Of a DNA stretch of 64,000 nucleotides, positions 1-56,116 are shown one piece after another. A model generated the notes under the pieces. It did not search any database. It was not told where the DNA came from and saw nothing but the letters and a program-made list of their open reading frames with translations. Every line of letters begins with the position of its first letter. Position 1 is the first letter of the stretch. The translations under genes and the position numbers were made by a program. This DNA comes from Escherichia phage AV108: the sequence record OR352938.1; one strand, written 5' to 3'.

Positions 1-3314
<3,314 letters not shown>

Positions 3315-3345
3315 CGATAATGCATAAAAAGATGAGGAAATTCTA

Positions 3346-5343
3346 ATGACTCTATTATCACCGGGTTTCGAAACGAAAGAAACTACTCTCTCCACTACCA
3401 TTGTGCAATCTGCGACTGGTCGCGCGGCGCTGGTAGGTAAATTTCAATGGGGTCCAGCTTTCCAGATTGTTCAAGTAACTAATGAAGTTGAATTAGTTAA
3501 TAAATTTGGTCAGCCGGATAATAACACCGCAGACTATTTCATGAGCGGGGCTAACTTCCTCCAGTATGGCAATGACCTGCGTGTTGTTCGTGTACTCAAT
3601 AAAGAAAAAGCAAAAAACGCAACTGTCCTAGCTGGTAACGTCGAGTTTGAAATCACAAACGAAGGTTCAAACTACAAAGTAGGCGATTCGATTAATGTAA
3701 AATACAACCGTCAGGAAGTTGAAACCGCTGGCAAAGTAACCAAAGTGGATGCCGAAGGTAAAATTAAAGGTATTTTCATCCCAACCGGGAAAATCATTGC
3801 TCTGGCTAAGTCCATTGGTGTTTACCCTAATCTGGATGGGTTTACCGCAGAAATCACTTCCGGCACTGGTAACTCAACTGCGGCGATCACCATTTCAAAA
3901 ATTGTTACCGATTCCGGTCTTCTCTTAACGGATCTGGAAACTTCCCGTGCCAATATCACAAATCAAACTTTCTTGACTAAACTCAAGAAGTATGATATGC
4001 CAGCAGTAAGCGCGATCTATGCTGGTGAGATCGGGGACTCTCTGGAAGTCGAGATCCTAGCACGTAGTGCGTTTAAGAACACCGCACCGGATCTGACAAT
4101 GTATCCTTACGGCGGTACTCGCACCGCAGCACGCAACCTGATTCCATATGCACCGCAGAATGATAATCAATATGCGTTTATTGTTCGTCGTGATGGTGTT
4201 GTGGTAGAATCCTATGTACTGTCTACTCTGAAAGGGGATAAAGACGTATACGGCAATTCTATCTATATGGACGACTTCTTTGCTCGTGGTTCTAGCCAGT
4301 ACATCTATGCAACCGCTCAGGGCTGGGTAGATGGTTTCAGTGGTATTATCTCTCTTGCTGGTGGTGTGTCTGCTAACGAAGCAACGATCGGTGGAGTTGG
4401 TGCTGATCCGTTCATCGGTGCGATGATGCAAGGTTGGGATCTGTTTGCTGAACGAGAATCTATTCACGTAAACCTGTTGATCGCTGGTGCATGTGCTGGC
4501 GAAGGCGATGCGTTCTCTACCGTACAGAAACATGCTGTTTCCATCGGTGATGAGCGTCAGGATTGCTTAGTAATGGTTTCTCCGCCGCGTAGCACTGTTG
4601 TTAATATTCCGGTGACTACTGCAATTGATAACCTGATTGCATGGCGCGAAGGTTCAGGAAACTATAATGAAAACAACATGAACATTAATACCACTTACGC
4701 GGTTATTGATGGTAACTACAAATATCAGTATGACAAATACAACGACGTAAACCGTTGGGTTCCGTTGGCTGCTGATATTGCTGGTTTGTGCGCTCGTACT
4801 GATGCTGTATCCCAGCCGTGGATGAGTCCGGCAGGTTATAACCGTGGTCAGATCATGAACGTGGTTAAACTGGCAATTGAGCCTCGCAAGGCGCACCGCG
4901 ATCGTCTGTATCAGGCCGCAATTAACCCGGTGATCGGTGCTGGTGGTGAAGGGTTTATCCTGATGGGTGATAAAACCGCTACGACTGTTCCTAGCCCGTT
5001 TGACCGCATTAACGTTCGTCGTCTGTTTAACATGCTGAAAAAGAATATCGGCGATTCAAGCAAATACAAACTGTTTGAAAACAATGATAACTTTACTCGC
5101 GCTTCCTTCCGTATGGAGGTTTCGCAATATCTCAGCACGATTCGCTCTCTGGGTGGCATTTATGACTTCCGAGTACAATGCGACACCACGAATAACACGC
5201 CGGATGTAATTGATCGTAACGAATTTGTTGCTAGTATGTTCATCAAACCAGCAAAATCGATCAACTATATCATGCTCAATTTCACTGCTGTTGCAACTGG
5301 TTCTGATTTTGACGAAATTATCGGTCCAGCTAACCAGGCATAA
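3346..5343 (+). CDS. 18: tail sheath protein (T4 gp18-like)
   Basis: 665-aa ORF, RBS GAGGAAA; size and position between 17 and 19 match T4 gp18 (659 aa). Confidence 0.9.
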   Translation: MTLLSPGFETKETTLSTTIVQSATGRAALVGKFQWGPAFQIVQVTNEVELVNKFGQPDNNTADYFMSGANFLQYGNDLRVVRVLNKEKAKNATVLAGNVEFEITNEGSNYKVGDSINVKYNRQEVETAGKVTKVDAEGKIKGIFIPTGKIIALAKSIGVYPNLDGFTAEITSGTGNSTAAITISKIVTDSGLLLTDLETSRANITNQTFLTKLKKYDMPAVSAIYAGEIGDSLEVEILARSAFKNTAPDLTMYPYGGTRTAARNLIPYAPQNDNQYAFIVRRDGVVVESYVLSTLKGDKDVYGNSIYMDDFFARGSSQYIYATAQGWVDGFSGIISLAGGVSANEATIGGVGADPFIGAMMQGWDLFAERESIHVNLLIAGACAGEGDAFSTVQKHAVSIGDERQDCLVMVSPPRSTVVNIPVTTAIDNLIAWREGSGNYNENNMNINTTYAVIDGNYKYQYDKYNDVNRWVPLAADIAGLCARTDAVSQPWMSPAGYNRGQIMNVVKLAIEPRKAHRDRLYQAAINPVIGAGGEGFILMGDKTATTVPSPFDRINVRRLFNMLKKNIGDSSKYKLFENNDNFTRASFRMEVSQYLSTIRSLGGIYDFRVQCDTTNNTPDVIDRNEFVASMFIKPAKSINYIMLNFTAVATGSDFDEIIGPANQA

Positions 5344-5377
5344 TCAGTAAATTAGCATAGATTAAAAGTTAAATCAA

Positions 5378-5396
5378 GCGGGGAGAAAATCCCCGC
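5378..5396 (+). other. intercistronic stem-loop GCGGGGAGAAAATCCCCGC
   Basis: Perfect 7-bp GC stem between genes 18 and 19; same module recurs at 5924 and, inverted, at 50002. Confidence 0.5.
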
Positions 5397-5416
5397 TCTA
5401 TTAAGGAATATCAATT

Positions 5417-5911
5417 ATGGCACTCGATTTGAATGATATTACACGCGGTTTCGAGTCTGGCGATTTTGCTCGTCCTAACCTGTTTGAAGTTGAGATCCCG
5501 TATCTGGGGCAAAACTTTAAGCTGATGTGTAAGGCTGCGACTGTCCCGGCTGCTACCGTAGAAAAAATTGCTATAGGCTATCAAAACCGTAAAATTAACA
5601 TCGCTGGCGACCGTGTATACGACGACTGGACCATCACTGTATTCAACGATGACGCACACAAGATCCGTGATGCTATCGTTGCATGGAGCGATCAGACACA
5701 CGGCACTGGTTCGGCGATCACGGGTGCAACTCCTGCACAATATAAGAAACAAGCTATTGTTCGTCAACTTAACCGTAACACCGAATCAACTAGCGAAAAA
5801 ACATTGTACGGTATTTTCCCGACCAACGTTGGTGAAGTAACCCTCGATTGGGAACAAAACAACGAAGTTGAAACGTTTGAAGTTACTTTTGCTATCGATT
5901 GGGTAGAATAA
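5417..5911 (+). CDS. 19: tail tube protein (T4 gp19-like)
   Basis: 164-aa ORF immediately after sheath gene; size and synteny match T4 gp19. Confidence 0.88.
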   Translation: MALDLNDITRGFESGDFARPNLFEVEIPYLGQNFKLMCKAATVPAATVEKIAIGYQNRKINIAGDRVYDDWTITVFNDDAHKIRDAIVAWSDQTHGTGSAITGATPAQYKKQAIVRQLNRNTESTSEKTLYGIFPTNVGEVTLDWEQNNEVETFEVTFAIDWVE

Positions 5912-5923
5912 ATATATTATCAT

Positions 5924-5942
5924 GCGGGGAGAAGTTCCCCGC
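5924..5942 (+). other. intercistronic stem-loop GCGGGGAGAAGTTCCCCGC
   Basis: Near-identical hairpin to 5378-5396, between genes 19 and 20. Confidence 0.5.
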
Positions 5943-5969
5943 CTAATTTCTCCCAATTCGAGGTGAATA

Positions 5970-7535
5970 ATGTTTAGTAGATTAAAAATGCTTGCGCGTT
6001 GGGCTGATTTTGACAACGACAAATACGAAGAACAAATTAAAGATAAAGCAGAGTCTATCGCCGCACCTAAAAACAATGATGGTGCTACGGAAGTAGAAAT
6101 TAATGATAATTTACCTGCTAGCGCGTGGAACTCTCTTACCCAGCAATTTTACAGCACCGACCAGAAAATCAGCACAACTAAGCAATTAGTTAACACATAT
6201 CGCGGTTTGATGAATAACCATGAAGTCGAAAACGCTGTACAAAATATCGTTAACGATGCGATTGTATTTGAAGAAGGTCATGAAGTTGTTTCATTAAATC
6301 TTGAGGCGACTGGCTTTAGTGAATCTGTAAAAGAGCGCATTCATGAAGAATTTAAAGATCTTTTAAACACTATCCAGTTTGATAGGCGCGGTCAGGATAT
6401 GTTCCGTCGCTGGTATGTCGATTCGCGTATTTTCTTCCATAAAATCATCGGCAAAAATCCAAAAGATGGTATCGTAGAATTACGCCAGCTTGACCCACGT
6501 AATCTTGAATACGTTCGAGAGATCATTACAGAAGACACACCGGAAGGTAAAATTTATAAAGCAACGAAAGAATATTTCATTTACACTGTAGGCAATAGCT
6601 CTTATTGCGCAGGTGGTCAAGTATTCTCTCCTAATAGTCGCGTTAAAATCCCGCGTAGTGCTATTACATACGCTCACAGCGGCTTGATGGATTGCGATGA
6701 TAAATATATCATTGGTTATTTGCATCGGGCTGTTAAGCCAGCAAACCAGCTTAAATTGTTGGAAGACGCAATGGTCGTTTATCGTATCACGCGTGCACCG
6801 GAACGCCGAGTGTTCTTTATTGATACCGGAAACATGAACAACCGCAAGGCTGCACAGCACATGAACTCAGTGGCACAGTCTTTTAAAAACCGCGTTGTTT
6901 ATGATGCATCGACTGGTAAACTTAAAAACCAGCAAGCAAATCTATCAATGACAGAGGACTACTGGTTACAGCGTCGAGATGGTAAAGCAATCACCGACGT
7001 TACTACTTTACCCGGTGCATCCGGTATGAGTGATATCGATGATATTCGCTACTTTAACCGTAAATTGTATGAAGCGTTGCGTGTACCATTGTCACGCAGT
7101 AATCTCTCCGATGCTAATATGGTGATCGGTGGTGACGGTTCAGAAATTACTCGCGATGAGTTGGAATTTTCGAAATTCATTAGAACTCTGCAATCACAGT
7201 TTTCGGAAGTATTGCGCGATCCTCTGAAATATAATCTGATTCTCAAAAATGTAATTACGGAAGACGATTGGGATCGTGAAATAAATAATATCAAGGTGGT
7301 TTTCCATCGGGACTCTTATTATACAGAAGTTAAAGACGCGGAAATTTTAGAACGTCGAATCGGTCTAATCGAACGTATTACACCTTACATTGGTAAATAT
7401 TTCTCTAACCAGACAGTGATGCGTGACATTCTGAAATATACCGATGACCAGATGGACACCGAGAAGAAACAGATCGAAGAAGAAGCGAACGATCCGCGCT
7501 TTAAACAAACTCCCGATGAAATAGAGGATTTTTAA
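5970..7535 (+). CDS. 20: portal vertex protein (T4 gp20-like)
   Basis: 521-aa ORF; size and position match T4 gp20 (524 aa). Confidence 0.9.
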   Translation: MFSRLKMLARWADFDNDKYEEQIKDKAESIAAPKNNDGATEVEINDNLPASAWNSLTQQFYSTDQKISTTKQLVNTYRGLMNNHEVENAVQNIVNDAIVFEEGHEVVSLNLEATGFSESVKERIHEEFKDLLNTIQFDRRGQDMFRRWYVDSRIFFHKIIGKNPKDGIVELRQLDPRNLEYVREIITEDTPEGKIYKATKEYFIYTVGNSSYCAGGQVFSPNSRVKIPRSAITYAHSGLMDCDDKYIIGYLHRAVKPANQLKLLEDAMVVYRITRAPERRVFFIDTGNMNNRKAAQHMNSVAQSFKNRVVYDASTGKLKNQQANLSMTEDYWLQRRDGKAITDVTTLPGASGMSDIDDIRYFNRKLYEALRVPLSRSNLSDANMVIGGDGSEITRDELEFSKFIRTLQSQFSEVLRDPLKYNLILKNVITEDDWDREINNIKVVFHRDSYYTEVKDAEILERRIGLIERITPYIGKYFSNQTVMRDILKYTDDQMDTEKKQIEEEANDPRFKQTPDEIEDF

Positions 7536-50032: not shown

Positions 50033-52276
50033 TTACAGCTTGCAAGATGAGCACTCGCTAGCGTCTTCCGTACCATCAGCACCGTCGCGAACGTTCGCAT
50101 AATACAGGGTTTTCAGACCGTAATATTGAGCAAACAACATATCATCTAACACATCAGCAATATCGACTTTACCAGTCTTATAAGTGCTTGGATCGTATGA
50201 TGTATTGGAACTAATCGCCTGATCCACAAACTTCTGCATGATCGCTGCCAGTGTCAGATAAGGCTTGTTACCTTTCTTGATCAGTGTCCAAAGCAGGTCA
50301 ATAACATCAGCATTATTCTCTACGTTCGGAATAACCTGATTAAATTGCCCTTCTTTCGATCCTTTAACCGATACAATACCGCGAGGCGGTTCAATACCGT
50401 TTGTGCTGTTAGATACCTGAGAAGACGACTCACAAGGCATCAGAGCCGAAAGCGTACTGTTACGAATGCCATATTTTTTCAGGTCTTCGCGCAGTTCTTC
50501 CCAATCCATCTCATATACCGGATCAACCAGTTCATCTACTGTCTTTTTGTACCAGTCGATAGGCAGTTCACCGCGTCCATAACGTGTTTCGTGCATCAGT
50601 TCGCAAGCACCCTTCTCTTTAGCCAGTTGCACACTAGCCTTAATCAGAGCATATTGCAAGCGTTCAAACGTTTTATGCGTAAACTCGTTAGCGTCTTCAT
50701 ATGTGAAGAAATTATCCGCGAGATACGATGCAAAGTTAGTCACCCCAACACCCAGAGAGCGACGTTTTTTGGATGTCAGAGCTTGCTCTACAGGATAATC
50801 CTGGTAATCTAACAGGTTGTCAAGTGCACGCACCATAACCATAGCAATGCGTTCTACTTCTTCCATATTTTCGATATCAAAGTTTCCTAAAACATATGCT
50901 GCCAAAGTACATAGGCTGATCTCTGAATCATCACGACCCATCGGTTTTGTAGGCAGAGCAATTTCACAACACAGGTTGGATTGTTTAATCGGTGCTACAT
51001 TACGAATAAACGCCCCGTGATTGTTCATGTTGTCTGTGAACGTTGGGTAGATTCGACCAGTGTTAAAACGTTCAATTGCCACCGCTAAAAACAGGTCTTC
51101 GGCTTTAACACGAGTTTTACGAACACTCGGATCTTTTTCCAGTTTTTCGTAAAGCTGGCGGAAACCTTCCTCATCTCGGAAGTATAGATCCCACAACAAG
51201 CCACCTGCAACATCTGGACTAAACAGAGTAATGTAATCCCGTTTAAGGAATCGCTCTACCATCAGGTTATTAATCTGTACGCCGTAATCAAGATGACGAA
51301 TGCGGTTATCTTCCACCCCCTTATTGTTCTTTAACACAATCAGACTTTCAAACTCTAAATGCCACATTGGGTAATAGAGAGTCGCCGCCCCGCCACGAAT
51401 ACCGCCTTGTGAGCATGACTTAACGGCAGTCTGAAAATGTTTCCAGAATGGGATAACGCCAGTATGACGAACTTCACCATGCCCGATCTTAGATCCTTCC
51501 GCGCGAATCATGCCAGCGTTGATACCGATACCAGCACGCTTGCTAATATACTTGATGATTGCATTTGCTGTTTCGTTGATGCCCTGCAATGAGTCATCAC
51601 TTTCAATCACCACACACGAACTAAATTGGCGTGTTGGGGTACGCACACCTGCCATAATCGGAGTAGGCAGAGAGATTTGCTTATTCGCAACAGCATTATA
51701 AAAATCAATCACATGTTCAAGTCTATTTTCGGTCTCTTCTTGATGCAAGCACATACCGATCAGCATATACGCAAATTGCGGTGTTTCGATGATTTTCTTA
51801 GTGCTGCGATCCTGAACAAGATATTTCTCTTTTAACTGCATCGCACCAGCATAGGTCATTTTAAAATCAAGTTTATGGTCGATGAATTTCTCCAGATATT
51901 CCACTTCTTCACGGGAATACTTTTGCAGAATTTCGCGATCATATTTTCCGATTGCAATATTACGCTCAATATGGCTATAAAAATCAATAGGTTGGAATTG
52001 ACCGTATACTGATTTACGAAGCGCGAACATTGCAAGGTTACTTGCTACATATTGATAATCGGGTGTTTCTACCGTGATGTTATCTGCGGCGACCTTAATC
52101 AATACTTTCTGGATATCATTGGTAGACATACCTTCTGTCAGAAGTGGTTCAACCATATCAAACAATTCATATGGATCAACGTTATGACCTTCGGCTGCCG
52201 CTTCCAGAATTTTCATTACTTTTTCTTTTTCAAACGGAACAGTCAGACCGGAAGACTTAACAACATTTTTAATCAT
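50033..52276 (-). CDS. nrdA: ribonucleotide reductase large subunit
   Basis: 747 aa (T4 NrdA about 754); N-terminal ATP-cone-like region; neighbour of nrdB. Confidence 0.88.
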   Translation of the reverse strand: MIKNVVKSSGLTVPFEKEKVMKILEAAAEGHNVDPYELFDMVEPLLTEGMSTNDIQKVLIKVAADNITVETPDYQYVASNLAMFALRKSVYGQFQPIDFYSHIERNIAIGKYDREILQKYSREEVEYLEKFIDHKLDFKMTYAGAMQLKEKYLVQDRSTKKIIETPQFAYMLIGMCLHQEETENRLEHVIDFYNAVANKQISLPTPIMAGVRTPTRQFSSCVVIESDDSLQGINETANAIIKYISKRAGIGINAGMIRAEGSKIGHGEVRHTGVIPFWKHFQTAVKSCSQGGIRGGAATLYYPMWHLEFESLIVLKNNKGVEDNRIRHLDYGVQINNLMVERFLKRDYITLFSPDVAGGLLWDLYFRDEEGFRQLYEKLEKDPSVRKTRVKAEDLFLAVAIERFNTGRIYPTFTDNMNNHGAFIRNVAPIKQSNLCCEIALPTKPMGRDDSEISLCTLAAYVLGNFDIENMEEVERIAMVMVRALDNLLDYQDYPVEQALTSKKRRSLGVGVTNFASYLADNFFTYEDANEFTHKTFERLQYALIKASVQLAKEKGACELMHETRYGRGELPIDWYKKTVDELVDPVYEMDWEELREDLKKYGIRNSTLSALMPCESSSQVSNSTNGIEPPRGIVSVKGSKEGQFNQVIPNVENNADVIDLLWTLIKKGNKPYLTLAAIMQKFVDQAISSNTSYDPSTYKTGKVDIADVLDDMLFAQYYGLKTLYYANVRDGADGTEDASECSSCKL

Positions 52277-52344: not shown

Positions 52345-53577
52345 TTATACTGCCATTTGAGCGGTGATCGCTGGATGGCTTTGATAGTTGTGAATTTTAA
52401 AGTCTTTCGGAGTCTTTGTCAATACCTCATCTAAAGATTTAAATTCCGGCAACTCAATTGTTGGTTTATCAAACGGAACACGGCTTAACTGTTCCATAAC
52501 TTGATCAAAGTGGTTTTTGTAAATGTGAGTATCTCCACCAGAGAAAATCAGTTCTCCTACCTCAAGATCACACATTTTCGCTATGATGTGAGTTAACAGC
52601 GCATAGCTGGCAACATTAAAGGGCAAGCCCAAAAAGCTGTCTACGCTTCGCTGAAACCACATACAAGACAGTTTACCTTCATTGACGTAGAATTGCACGA
52701 AAGGATGACATACACCCAATACAGCATTATGTGTTCCTTGTACGTTCCATGAGTCAATAATGATCCGGCGATCCGTTGGATTGTTTTTAATTTGTTCAAT
52801 CACGTTTTGTAACTGGTCTTCCCAAATCTTCGGGCGATAGACATATTCTTCATCGTCTTTAGTGCTCGATGTGTCTACGTCCATACTAGCAAAGATCGTG
52901 GTATCTGGTGCTAAAATATCCCCACCCAGATAATCACTATCAAGTAGATAACCGAAATAACCATCATCTACCCATTCCTGGAATCCCCACAAGCAATATG
53001 CATCATTAACAAAATTAGATTGAGTCTTCCAGTGATCTGCTACTAAGAATTGATTATATTCAGAATCAAACTCTTCATAACGCATACCACGCCAGATAGC
53101 ACATAAACGGTCTTCTGTGTCGTTGGTTGGCGTAAAGTCTTCTACCCACGGGTGCTTAAATGTATGTGCATATTTGCTCTTAACGCGCTTAATTTTGATT
53201 TCACCGTGTGGATGAATCGGTTTGCGTCGCCATGCCATACCATACATATTGCCGACATTATAACCATTGAATCGCAAAGGATTCTTTTCTTTCATATCAA
53301 GACAGTTGCCGCGCCAAATGTCGAAGGCTTCTTCGTCAAACTTACCGCGTGTAATTTCCTGTAAGCGACGGCGGTCAAGTGATCCCTCCATAAACCATAG
53401 CAATTCGCCAATTACAGAGGCTGTAGCCATCTTTTTAGTGGTCAGTAATGGGAAACCCTTGCTTAAATCAATTCGCATCTCTGCGCCGAATTTAGAGAGC
53501 GTACCTACCCCCGTGCGGTCTTCACGAGGCCAGCCATTATCAAGAACATCACGCAACAGTTTCAAATATTCTTTCAT
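52345..53577 (-). CDS. td: thymidylate synthase (ThyA-type) with expanded insertion domain
   Basis: DRTGVGT, LLWF, catalytic VCH, KLSC..FQRS.D.FLGLPFN, GGDTHIY as in ThyA/T4 Td as recalled; 410 aa versus 264-286 aa. Confidence 0.8.
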   Translation of the reverse strand: MKEYLKLLRDVLDNGWPREDRTGVGTLSKFGAEMRIDLSKGFPLLTTKKMATASVIGELLWFMEGSLDRRRLQEITRGKFDEEAFDIWRGNCLDMKEKNPLRFNGYNVGNMYGMAWRRKPIHPHGEIKIKRVKSKYAHTFKHPWVEDFTPTNDTEDRLCAIWRGMRYEEFDSEYNQFLVADHWKTQSNFVNDAYCLWGFQEWVDDGYFGYLLDSDYLGGDILAPDTTIFASMDVDTSSTKDDEEYVYRPKIWEDQLQNVIEQIKNNPTDRRIIIDSWNVQGTHNAVLGVCHPFVQFYVNEGKLSCMWFQRSVDSFLGLPFNVASYALLTHIIAKMCDLEVGELIFSGGDTHIYKNHFDQVMEQLSRVPFDKPTIELPEFKSLDEVLTKTPKDFKIHNYQSHPAITAQMAV

Positions 53578-53812
53578 CCCACATCCCCTTTTTCTTTGCT
53601 TTCTTACGCAGTTTTGCTACTGTCTCGCTAATGTTAATAAAAATATCGTCTGGACCGAATACAGTAACAGGTCTTGATATATCGCTATTTTCTTGTACAG
53701 GAAACCATGACGCTTTCGATTCATCATAGAGATATTGCAACCCGTAAAGATCTTCTGCTACTGCGTAGTTTTCATTGGTTGCCGACCATAATCGAATAAT
53801 ACTGATTTTCAT
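53549..53812 (-). CDS. hypothetical protein (87 aa)
   Basis: ATG at 53812 overlapping upstream stop (TAATG); 3' end overlaps td start. Confidence 0.4.
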   Translation of the reverse strand: MKISIIRLWSATNENYAVAEDLYGLQYLYDESKASWFPVQENSDISRPVTVFGPDDIFINISETVAKLRKKAKKKGMWDERIFETVA

Positions 53813-53904
53813 TATTGTTCCCGTCCGCAGTGTAAACACCGACTACCAGCAAACATCAAAGATTCACCACAATGTTTGCACTCATAATCTGTCAGAATTT
53901 TCAT
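53812..53904 (-). CDS. hypothetical zinc-ribbon mini-protein (30 aa)
   Basis: CKHCG...CLHCG two CxxC pairs; tightly packed between frd stop and next start. Confidence 0.35.
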   Translation of the reverse strand: MKILTDYECKHCGESLMFAGSRCLHCGREQ

Positions 53905-53905
53905 G

Positions 53906-54487
53906 TTACGCCTTCTTACGTTCTAAAATTTGTTCGCTGATCAGGTAATCATCAAGGAAGTAATTATGTTCTTCTTTTGTTGTAAAATCAAAATATAATT
54001 CCTGAATCATTTCCTTAGAGATGCCAACATCATATTCAAACGGATCATTAATTCCTGATCGTTGAACATACGTTAACACAATACGGTCCGCAAAGTCAAC
54101 TGCTTTTTCAATCAGGGAAGGTCCGCCAATAACGCTTACCAAACCTTGCAATTTCTCTATGACTTCTAATAATTCCTTCAATCCACCATCATTAGTAATC
54201 GCGGTATACACATCTGGTTGGTCGCCGTTTTTTGCTTTCGGTGCTGGCTTACTGGTATCGGTGCTAACAACCACATTCACACGACCTTCCAGTGCTTTAG
54301 GGAGACTTTCAAAGGTATTACGTCCCATTACAACCGCCGCAAGATCAACATCTCCCATAGTGCGCATTTTAAAGTTTTCCATGTCCTTTTTGATTGGACG
54401 TCCCCACGGTAAACCGCCTTTAAAACCAAAAGCCCAATTTTCATCTGACATTTTAGTGTCACCAATCGCAAATACACATTGAATCAT
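53906..54487 (-). CDS. frd: dihydrofolate reductase
   Basis: 193 aa (as T4 Frd); DHFR signature GGLPW and next to td. Confidence 0.85.
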   Translation of the reverse strand: MIQCVFAIGDTKMSDENWAFGFKGGLPWGRPIKKDMENFKMRTMGDVDLAAVVMGRNTFESLPKALEGRVNVVVSTDTSKPAPKAKNGDQPDVYTAITNDGGLKELLEVIEKLQGLVSVIGGPSLIEKAVDFADRIVLTYVQRSGINDPFEYDVGISKEMIQELYFDFTTKEEHNYFLDDYLISEQILERKKA

Positions 54488-54863: not shown

Positions 54864-54891
54864 ATTATACACTATTGCGTTACGCTGTCAA
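54864..54891 (-). promoter_or_regulatory. sigma70-like early promoter (TTGACA-16-TATAAT)
   Basis: Minus-strand -35/-10 pair overlapping the 3' end of the upstream ORF. Confidence 0.5.
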
Positions 54892-56058
54892 CTCTTTTTC
54901 AAAAGATTTTACGATATACATGATGGTGCTCAATTCGGACGGCGCTACTGTCTCTGTGTAGCCATCCGGCATATCTTCTTTCGAGATATAGGAAGTTTTA
55001 CCTTTCATTACTTCCTTGATTTTGTTCTCTAATTCTAAGATCTTTTGACCGTCTTGTAAAGTCAATTCATAAAAGATCTCATGATCGAACTTTGAAACAC
55101 GAGATTGGTTTCTCATGCGCTCATGTGTTTCTTTGTTTGTTATTCCAAATTTCACGCCAACAAAGGAATCATTGTTGGTTAATTTCTGTATATAAAGAGT
55201 TCCTGTCTTTAATGCCTGATAACCATGCTTAGAACACAACGGGCAGCGTGTTCCGCGATTAACAAAATTATCAATAGTTACATCCCATTCATGGTTACGT
55301 TCGCATGTCAGAAGTATTCTTGTTAATGCACCTTTCCACTTTCCTGAAATCCCAATAAATTTTAGTCTGTTGGTTTCGCATATTTTTTCAATTTGTTTTA
55401 ATCGGTCACTTTTTGTTATTGGTGCTGTTCCGCTACATTTGCGACACCGACGACCTAGTTTGAACTTATCATAACTTTGTTCGTAAATGTGATTATTAGG
55501 ACACTCAAATTTAAGTTTAGTTTTTGTTCCTCTCCATTCCCCAATTATACCCAAAAATTTATAATCTCCTTTATTTTCATTTATATAAGATAAGGAATCT
55601 TCTTTATCATGCATCTTGCCCCCGTTACATAAAGGACATCTTGTTTTTTGATGAATGAAATCTGTATATGTTGGTTGGTATGTGTGTCCGTTTGTACAGT
55701 TCATAATGAGTCTTGTTCTGCTATTTTTATACTCCCCACCAACAAAACCAACAAATACATCGTTTGTTTCTTGTTTTATTCTTTCTATCACATTGTTTGG
55801 GTTTAATCTTTGAGAATCAACCACACATTTCTTACACGAAACGTTTTTCCTGATATTTGCTAGAGTTGATGTGTATTCATGCTTGTTATTACATAATATA
55901 AGAGCTTTTGTTTTGAGACCAGACCATTCTCCAACAAACCCCATGAAAGAATAACCAACTTCCAAACATGAATTTTTTACAACATTTTCCCAATAGAAGG
56001 GAGTTTTCGTGTTTCCTTTTATTTCTATACTAATCTCATGTGCTTGACGTACTAACAT
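54880..56058 (-). CDS. protein with four tandem Cys4 zinc-ribbon repeats and C-terminal GIY-YIG-like (T5orf172-type) domain; putative homing-endonuclease-like
   Basis: Four ~65-aa repeats each F.G..GEW.G..T...C...H.Y......F.....C..C; C-terminus LYIQKL...FVGVKFGIT; ATG 56058 with GGAGG RBS. Confidence 0.5.
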   Translation of the reverse strand: MLVRQAHEISIEIKGNTKTPFYWENVVKNSCLEVGYSFMGFVGEWSGLKTKALILCNNKHEYTSTLANIRKNVSCKKCVVDSQRLNPNNVIERIKQETNDVFVGFVGGEYKNSRTRLIMNCTNGHTYQPTYTDFIHQKTRCPLCNGGKMHDKEDSLSYINENKGDYKFLGIIGEWRGTKTKLKFECPNNHIYEQSYDKFKLGRRCRKCSGTAPITKSDRLKQIEKICETNRLKFIGISGKWKGALTRILLTCERNHEWDVTIDNFVNRGTRCPLCSKHGYQALKTGTLYIQKLTNNDSFVGVKFGITNKETHERMRNQSRVSKFDHEIFYELTLQDGQKILELENKIKEVMKGKTSYISKEDMPDGYTETVAPSELSTIMYIVKSFEKELTA

Positions 56059-56088
56059 ATTTTTATCCTCCGTTGTTTCGATGATTGT

Positions 56089-56116
56089 ATTATACATTAC
56101 CACATCAGCATGTCAA
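56089..56116 (-). promoter_or_regulatory. sigma70-like early promoter (TTGACA-16-TATAAT)
   Basis: Minus-strand -35/-10 pair upstream of the zinc-ribbon repeat gene. Confidence 0.5.

Follow-up and report, generated by a model that had tools for sequence, protein, structure and literature searches.

How did the thymidylate synthase (TS) of an Escherichia phage come to hold more than a hundred residues that E. coli ThyA and T4 Td do without, and what are these residues? The question is raised by the td gene of phage AV108, located in the window analysed here, i.e. the whole stretch of 64,000 nucleotides (OR352938.1), which is almost identical in sequence to Shigella phage Sf20 (genus Krischvirus, RB49 group of T4-like phages). 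The initial annotation had seen in the extra residues a simple protein-level domain gain. This reading did not withstand the analysis, as homologues of the insert form a family of phage modules that behaves as a mobile cassette in other phages. The insert is probably a fixed, nuclease-dead and eroded remnant of an in-frame homing-endonuclease-like module, borne by an ordinary TS.

The td gene and its enzyme core

The gene and the two parts of its enzyme core are located as follows:

52345..53577, minus strand: td, ThyA-type thymidylate synthase, 410 aa, stop codon included (ORF list; Pfam PF00303, E=1e-84; PDB ThyA matches; td annotation in RB49, Phi1, JSE and Sf20)
53227..53577, minus strand: N-terminal part of the TS core, aa 1-117, ending in GNMYGMAWR, where Y112 corresponds to E. 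coli Y94 (alignments)
52345..52818, minus strand: C-terminal part of the TS core, aa 254-410 plus stop, with R270/R271, C290-H291, R310, D313, N321, H351 and Y353 (alignments)

The ORF list confirmed a single uninterrupted frame of 410 aa, as first described, and placed it on the minus strand, a point absent from the initial annotation. The Pfam family Thymidylat_synt (PF00303) matches Td with 284 bits, against a cut-off of 24.3, in two stretches with the insert in between. The profile of PHROG 160 also matches (4e-101), and residues 1-82 and 254-410 align with E. coli ThyA structures from the PDB. As originally claimed, no catalytic element of ThyA is missing: the alignment gives R21, E58, W88, Y112, R270/R271, C290-H291, R310-S311, D313, N321, H351 and Y353, together with the conserved C-terminus (..AQMAV). 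N321 is the equivalent of Asn177, which is consistent, as had also been noted, with specificity for dUMP and not dCMP. By its sequence, the window td is an ordinary, catalytically complete TS, predicted to be active, and the gene order frd-td-nrdA is that of T4-type phages. A second, smaller excess of about 19 residues, upstream of the insert (aa ~70-108), is shared with T4 Td.

The length of Td is the standard of the genus and not an assembly artefact, since the same td was found in 58 out of 58 independent sequenced Krischvirus genomes, with 406-411 aa, 91-99.8% identity and the plain annotation td. The initial annotation had allowed for a frameshifted duplication or another sequencing or assembly error, which is thereby excluded, and for relatives that share this length as a standard feature, which is what every Krischvirus displays.

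A group I or group II intron was also considered and rejected, in agreement with the earlier reading: no Rfam match was obtained at E<=1 between positions 51800 and 54200, the ORF is continuous, and the dN/dS of the insert is well below 1.

Position and predicted structure of the insert

The insert and its parts were delimited as follows:

52819..53226, minus strand: insert, probable degenerate homing-endonuclease-like module, aa 118-253, 136 aa (alignment boundaries; profile of 63 free-standing non-TS proteins)
53188..53226, minus strand: apparent outgoing stalk beta-strand, aa 118-130, RKPIHPHGEIKIK (AF2 strand 118-130, pLDDT >90)
52846..53187, minus strand: globular part, probable relic, aa 131-244, with predicted helices 153-169, 181-184, 186-193 and 199-204 and strands 210-213 and 228-231; net charge -18 (AF2, charge, module alignment)
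52885..52950, minus strand: degenerate beta-hairpin of a putative His-Me finger, aa 210-231, YLLDSDYLGGDILAPDTTIFAS (motif table, alignments)
52819..52845, minus strand: apparent returning stalk beta-strand, aa 245-253, YVYRPKIWE (AF2 strand 245-254; V.RP.I motif)

According to the alignments, 136 residues sit between YGMAWR and DQL of Td, vs. 10 in E. coli (AWPTPDGRHI) and five in T4-type Td. The excess is thus ~126-131 aa, close to the ~125 first estimated. The assignment of these residues to the variable small-domain site was not upheld: the classical insertion of L. casei TS lies before the YG..WR motif, whereas the Td insert follows WR. The loop that receives the insert is itself length-variable in ordinary TS (5-34 residues). 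At the edges of the insert, the linker PHG..I.RK is common to many TS inserts, although weaker in the Bacillus-phage and P0028/P0029 versions, and the V.RP.I motif at the returning strand is kept in most of them.

The AlphaFold model of the whole Td has a pLDDT of 93.1 and a pTM of 0.91, and the insert is modelled with the same confidence as the core, except for one loop at aa ~171-180. In this model, a long strand (118-130) leads out of the enzyme to four helices and a beta-hairpin (210-213, 228-231), and a second long strand (245-254) leads back. Judging from the secondary structure, the two long strands look like a paired, two-stranded beta stalk, and the orientation of the insert on Td is apparently fixed. 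Among Krischvirus, td codons 171-177 (53047-53067, minus strand; within the 171-180 block) display a 4-codon indel, SEYN being present or absent, in the only low-confidence loop of the insert.

Homology of the insert to a phage module family

The homology of the insert was tested independently of TS proteins, with a profile built from 63 free-standing non-TS phage proteins. This profile matched the window Td at aa 126-248 (E~1e-12, 34 bits, profile positions 54-184 of 248), whereas the best of 1000 shuffled inserts reached 6.6 bits, and the td insert was its only match in the six-frame translated window. Because TS proteins are excluded from the profile, other TS inserts are not needed to establish the homology to the free-standing modules, which is direct. 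With tblastn, the insert matched same-site insertions in the TS of jumbo coliphages and Klebsiella phages (UE-S1, KP13-7, phiKp_21; 517 aa), as well as in three Vibrio phages whose 477-aa TS is labelled 'HNH endonuclease'. In a word-indexed homologue search, the 136-aa insert alone gave no match and the 245-aa insert of UE-S1 only four proteins.

Compared with PHROGs, the 245-aa UE-S1 insert matched three families labelled HNH endonuclease (4e-32, 7e-25 and 8e-21); the homologous PHROG families of the module are 2081, 953 and 374. The three profiles are each matched at a different position, from which it appears that the module behaves as a shuffled unit. The module was located at 1951 places, spread over 1365 phage genomes; most of them are small genes that stand alone, such as those of Bacillus phage SPG24 (gp030, between nrdB and thioredoxin), Vibrio phage D258 (D258_0038, between primase and DNA polymerase) and Lactococcus phage AM11 (AM11_125, among nrd genes). 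When 1.84 billion representative proteins were searched exhaustively by profile, the family grew to 16,812 clusters at E<=1e-3. Among the best 127 of these clusters, 39 are thymidylate synthases and seven have NUMOD-like domains, while none matches a canonical HNH model. C-terminal NUMOD-like helices of the I-HmuI type occur in some module proteins, and where members bear a name, which few do, PHROGs and several depositors call them homing or HNH endonucleases.

Through its homology to these endonuclease-annotated phage modules, the insert is predicted to be of endonuclease ancestry. The earlier statement that it has neither endonuclease nor intein motifs consequently needs dividing: the intein half stands (Pfam, junctions; see below), but the endonuclease half falls with this homology to modules called HNH or homing endonucleases.

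As a whole, a full-length module (~190-285 aa) combines an SH3-like beta unit with a GxGYLG linker, a helical region, a putative beta-beta-alpha core and a NUMOD-like tail. Its near-invariant residues are D-K-D in the first strand, a Tyr in the loop, a Cys in the second strand and an Asn in the helix, without any His. The alignment of the module with the Td insert reveals a shared core, with W..M..R, W..F.NF..D and LD.D..TxxF. When a full-length module (245 aa) was modelled (pLDDT 92.1), three further elements appeared: a beta unit at the N-terminus, a helix that follows the hairpin to give strand-strand-helix, and a strand-helix part at the C-terminus.

Structure searches with the module gave 51 significant viral matches in BFVD, the top one being another phage TS and the others mostly unnamed phage proteins, of which the few with a name are homing endonucleases. 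Foldseek against the PDB returned nothing significant: the N-terminal beta unit alone was matched, with low probability, by SH3/Tudor-like structures. In structural comparison, the full-length module came closest to PacI (PDB 3m7k), a nuclease of the His-Me finger type in which the catalytic His is missing and a Tyr of the inter-strand loop is used (PMC5714182). Since the module is also devoid of His and has a conserved inter-strand Tyr, it is a reasonable hypothesis, by analogy, that it may be a PacI-like, His-less nuclease. We infer nuclease activity for the parent module.

As for curated models and databases, Pfam detected no family in the insert or in the long inserts, even at E<=10; no Pfam HNH model matched the insert, the long inserts or the 127 family representatives, and none from NCBIfam did, so that among the family models only HNH-labelled PHROGs matched; and no PDB sequence matched the module by sequence or profile search. 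A literature search retrieved no biochemical study of DNA cleavage by the D-K-D module family.

The module in other phage TS genes

About 60 diverse phage TS clusters carry the module at exactly the site of the Td insert, with full-length copies of 190-285 aa. These insert-bearing TS are scattered over unrelated phages of enterobacteria, Vibrio, Bacillus and Tenacibaculum, and the site is always identical.

Two comparisons are between close relatives with and without the insert. The TS of Bacillus phage 015DV002 has 564 aa with the insert, vs. 294 aa without it in the sister phage 015DV004; several further sister phages also have no insert. The two td genes are ~97-100% identical up to a junction after YGAQWGSWG, beyond which 015DV002 has an in-frame insert of ~810 nt, followed by ~135-150 nt of TS sequence in which identity falls to 58-75%, before it returns to ~100%. 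Between the jumbo coliphages UE-S1, with the insert, and 121Q, identity is 95-100% except in TS codons ~83-460, a segment which in UE-S1 comprises the insert and foreign TS sequence, mostly downstream of it.

Sporadic presence or absence at one conserved site, together with co-conversion of the flanks, is thus what the long-insert relatives display, as in homing. In Krischvirus, by contrast, the insert is fixed and only a recombinant patch adjoins it. Because the insertion is precise and the co-conversion tract one-sided, the pattern is that expected of double-strand-break repair begun near the site. We infer that homing is the mechanism by which the module is transferred.

Several individual records deserve a mention. 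Vibrio phage D69 (as well as D181 and D148) has a 477-aa gene (locus 2641-4074) labelled 'HNH endonuclease' that is in fact a TS (Pfam 1.9e-47) with a 196-aa module; the label looks like a mis-annotation caused by the insert, and some database records of insert-bearing TS genes wrongly read 'HNH endonuclease' or 'hypothetical protein'. In Tenacibaculum phage PTm5 (locus 1608-3191), a 527-aa 'thymidylate synthase and pyrimidine hydroxymethylase' carries the module with D-K-D, Y, T-C and N intact, which extends the host range of the cassette to phages of Bacteroidota. Concerning Bacillus phage KKP_4048, its td (locus 3001-4183) is split into two CDSs ~290 nt apart at a site that differs from that of the module, and no Rfam family was detected there at gathering score.

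Erosion and constraint of the Krischvirus copy

The lengths of the TS inserts form a series from 285 down to 127 aa. The set D-K-D, Y, T-C, N is kept in nearly all long-insert TS and lost in every TS of 401-418 aa. In the window copy, the same set reads D-S-D, L, T-T, D, so that four of the six near-invariant residues (K, Y, C and N) are gone, and the motif table and alignments indicate that the helix with the conserved Asn is deleted. Both end subdomains are also missing, i.e. the N-terminal SH3-like beta unit, the GxGYLG linker, the post-hairpin helix and the C-terminal NUMOD-like part. The globular part of the window insert has a net charge of -18, vs. about +2 on average for the cores of long-insert TS and about 0 for free-standing modules. 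Because these residues are lost, the subdomains gone and the surface acidic, it is very unlikely that the window insert would bind or cleave DNA.

The insert is nevertheless confidently folded and under purifying selection: its dN/dS within Krischvirus is about 0.18 (range 0.05-0.27, from small counts), well below 1.

Shorter copies exist elsewhere. The insert of the P0010 TS has 127 aa and only 11 bits to the module profile. A short-insert lineage formed by P0014 and P0017 (144-145 aa) has deletion boundaries unlike those of Krischvirus, which suggests an independent reduction to a minimal foldable core. In total, at least two short-insert lineages with differing deletion boundaries hold a core of 127-145 aa in which LWGFQEWVD and PDT.IF are kept.

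A T4-like phage contig of 169 kb from a metagenome (ERZ27275846, k141_68074) has the synteny gp32 ... frd-td-nrdA-nrdB. Its td (locus 5001-6206) codes for 401 aa that are 52% identical to the window Td, with a more eroded, 127-aa relic.

Sequence around the insert

Three features of the window adjoin the insert or flank td:

52528..52806, minus strand: recombination patch directly 3' of the insert, td codons ~258-350 (Krischvirus td comparison)
53906..54487, minus strand: frd, dihydrofolate reductase, upstream neighbour of td (Pfam DHFR_1, Sf20 annotation)
50033..52276, minus strand: nrdA, ribonucleotide reductase large subunit, downstream neighbour of td (ORF list, Sf20 annotation)

The patch (~280 nt) exists in Krischvirus as two haplotypes that have diverged by ~32% at the nucleotide level, whereas the rest of td is ~98% identical. 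It begins five codons past the insert and includes G317|L318, the homologue of the T4 td intron site. A search of the phage collection with both haplotypes found no donor closer than ~74%.

Two other ORFs were observed nearby. The end of a 96-aa ORF (53549-53839, minus strand), without a Pfam match, overlaps the td start by 29 nt; relatives annotate there a shorter CDS of ~89 aa as a hypothetical protein (Phi1 gp236-like). Between frd and gene 32, a 407-aa ORF (54880-56103, minus strand) has, according to Pfam, four CapR-homology repeats and a treble-clef zinc finger, followed by a C-terminal part (..GTLYIQKL..VKFGIT..) with no Pfam match. Its counterpart in Sf20 has only 281 aa and the annotation 'putative endonuclease activity', so that the gene at this place is variable and possibly homing-endonuclease-like.

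Origin and fate of the insert

The probable course of events would be the following. The module exists as thousands of small free phage genes and, in many phages, as an in-frame cassette at one site of thyA, the surface loop that links the YG..WR motif to the DQ helix, where an apparent two-stranded beta stalk keeps it at a distance from the enzyme. In other phages, the cassette seems to have been transferred recently by gene conversion, the TS sequence just downstream being co-converted. Such a homing-endonuclease-like cassette would have entered an ancestral T4-like td in frame and become fixed, after which the Krischvirus element would have shed its two end subdomains and putative catalytic residues, to leave a compact, very acidic and well-folded appendage. 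Presumably, with neither RNA nor protein splicing, this insert stays in the mature Td. Purifying selection on it would be most simply explained by misfolding that would cripple an essential enzyme, and the relic itself would then be functionless.

Alternatively, the Krischvirus relic could have been exapted for a new job, such as an acidic protein-contact surface, for instance in a T4-type dNTP-synthesising complex, DNA mimicry or target-site immunity; in this last version, the insert might interrupt the target of related active elements and so shield the td allele. Several observations fit such a role: fixation in all 58 Krischvirus genomes and presence in the distinct T4-like contig, the low dN/dS (~0.18), a confident and compact fold in an apparently fixed orientation (pTM 0.91), a net charge (-18) unlike that of its relatives, and the 127-145-aa core retained by two or more short-insert lineages. 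The constraint is, however, explained equally well by the need not to misfold an essential enzyme, erosion is still under way in P0010 (127 aa, 11 bits), and T4-type Td functions without any insert, so that we consider exaptation unlikely.

A lineage-specific, protein-level expansion of the TS variable small domain, unrelated to mobile elements, would agree with the length variability of the loop in ordinary TS (5-34 residues) and with the lack of Pfam matches in the insert. It is made highly improbable by the direct profile homology to free-standing non-TS phage proteins, by the same module at the same site in the TS of unrelated Bacillus, Vibrio, Tenacibaculum and enterobacterial phages, and by its presence or absence between near-identical phages, with foreign flanking tracts.

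Just as improbable is an intein, mini-intein or other self-excising element that would leave a mature Td of normal size. The insert is in frame, sporadic and located in a conserved region of a nucleotide-metabolism enzyme, and a Cys lies close to the N-junction of many long inserts (PC.PHG), but this Cys is missing from the window, UE-S1 and Bacillus inserts, and in the AF2 model the insert is a stable domain carried by a stalk. The window Td and the insert-bearing TS proteins scanned with Pfam contain only Thymidylat_synt and no Hint or intein domain. At the junctions, which read WR|RKPI...KIWE|DQ in the window and WG|EGET...YALP|VNQ in 015DV002, neither a position-1 nucleophile, nor a C-terminal His-Asn, nor a +1 Cys/Ser/Thr was found, the residue after the insert being D or N.

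The least probable explanation is that the insert codes for the real endonuclease in another frame and that its in-frame reading is only tolerated as read-through, for which a phage methylase with the ShiLan domain offers a precedent (PMC11855218): the in-frame translation is itself a conserved homologous protein, and no alternate-frame ORF overlapping the insert exceeds 79 aa in UE-S1 or 70 aa in the window.

Beyond the window, the TS modules may represent a new kind of homing element, namely an endonuclease-like internal TS domain that is translated in frame, borne on a beta stalk and left unspliced, of which the Krischvirus insert would be the decayed end-state; we put this forward tentatively, as a possibility of somewhat less than even weight. 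In such an element, the TS dimer might serve to pair two nuclease domains.

Significance

Homing endonuclease genes are not known to persist inside essential genes except within introns or inteins, and otherwise sit between genes. The TS element appears to take another route, being translated within the host enzyme and tolerated since it protrudes from a permissive loop. The series from 285 to 127 aa, across ~60 TS clusters, displays invasion, fixation and decay in a single gene family, and natural pairs of phages with and without the insert exist. If the full-length modules are active, they would make up a family of compact nucleases that lack a His, with over 16,000 clusters and not one curated model in Pfam or NCBIfam, as well as an example of a mobile element that supplies enzymes with ready-made domain insertions. 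For the window itself, the practical point is smaller: td of the RB49 group is an ordinary TS with what is probably a relic appendage, which illustrates the dead end-state only. The td gene is already known and annotated, whereas the origin of its insert and the wider phenomenon appear to be new. In the literature searched, neither the insert of RB49-group Td nor TS-embedded endonuclease modules were found described, and the reported TS inteins are in ThyX, not ThyA.

Comparison with known systems

With the ThyA proteins (E. coli ThyA, T4 Td; PF00303), the window Td shares the fold-defining motifs and catalytic residues, and with T4-type phages the order frd-td-nrdA. It differs by its WR-DQ loop, which holds 136 residues vs. 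5-10 in the E. coli and T4 enzymes. The T4-type td is, in addition, split by a group I intron at G183|L184, which corresponds to G317|L318 of the window, where td is intron-free. That intron and its endonuclease I-TevI resemble the TS module as a mobile element in the same host gene, with co-conversion of flanking td sequence; unlike the module, they occupy codon 317/318 and not 117/118 (window numbering), belong to the GIY-YIG family and are spliced as RNA.

The free-standing modules of PHROG 2081, 953 and 374 have a core homologous to the window insert (E~1e-12), whereas the window copy is embedded in an enzyme, highly acidic and without the SH3-like unit, GxGYLG linker and NUMOD-like tail. 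PacI-type His-Me finger nucleases (3m7k; group 20, Jablonska et al. 2017, PMC5714182) resemble the module by the lack of a catalytic His, the Tyr in the inter-strand loop and the helical region that precedes it.

Inteins and mini-inteins are also in-frame, mobile and located at conserved sites of essential enzymes, and their endonuclease likewise decays after fixation to a smaller remnant; they differ by a Hint splicing domain and junction residues, both lacking in the TS inserts. The nearest precedent was described in 2025 by Arsenault, Gosselin and Gogarten: the ShiLan domain of actinophage DNA methylases (PMC11855218). Like the TS module, it is a stop-free, in-frame insertion in a phage enzyme of nucleotide or DNA metabolism, neither intron nor intein, that is predicted to loop out of its host protein and evolves in a homing-like manner (PMC11855218). 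The two differ in where the endonuclease is encoded: out of frame, as an HNH endonuclease, in ShiLan, whereas in TS it is the in-frame product itself that is endonuclease-like.
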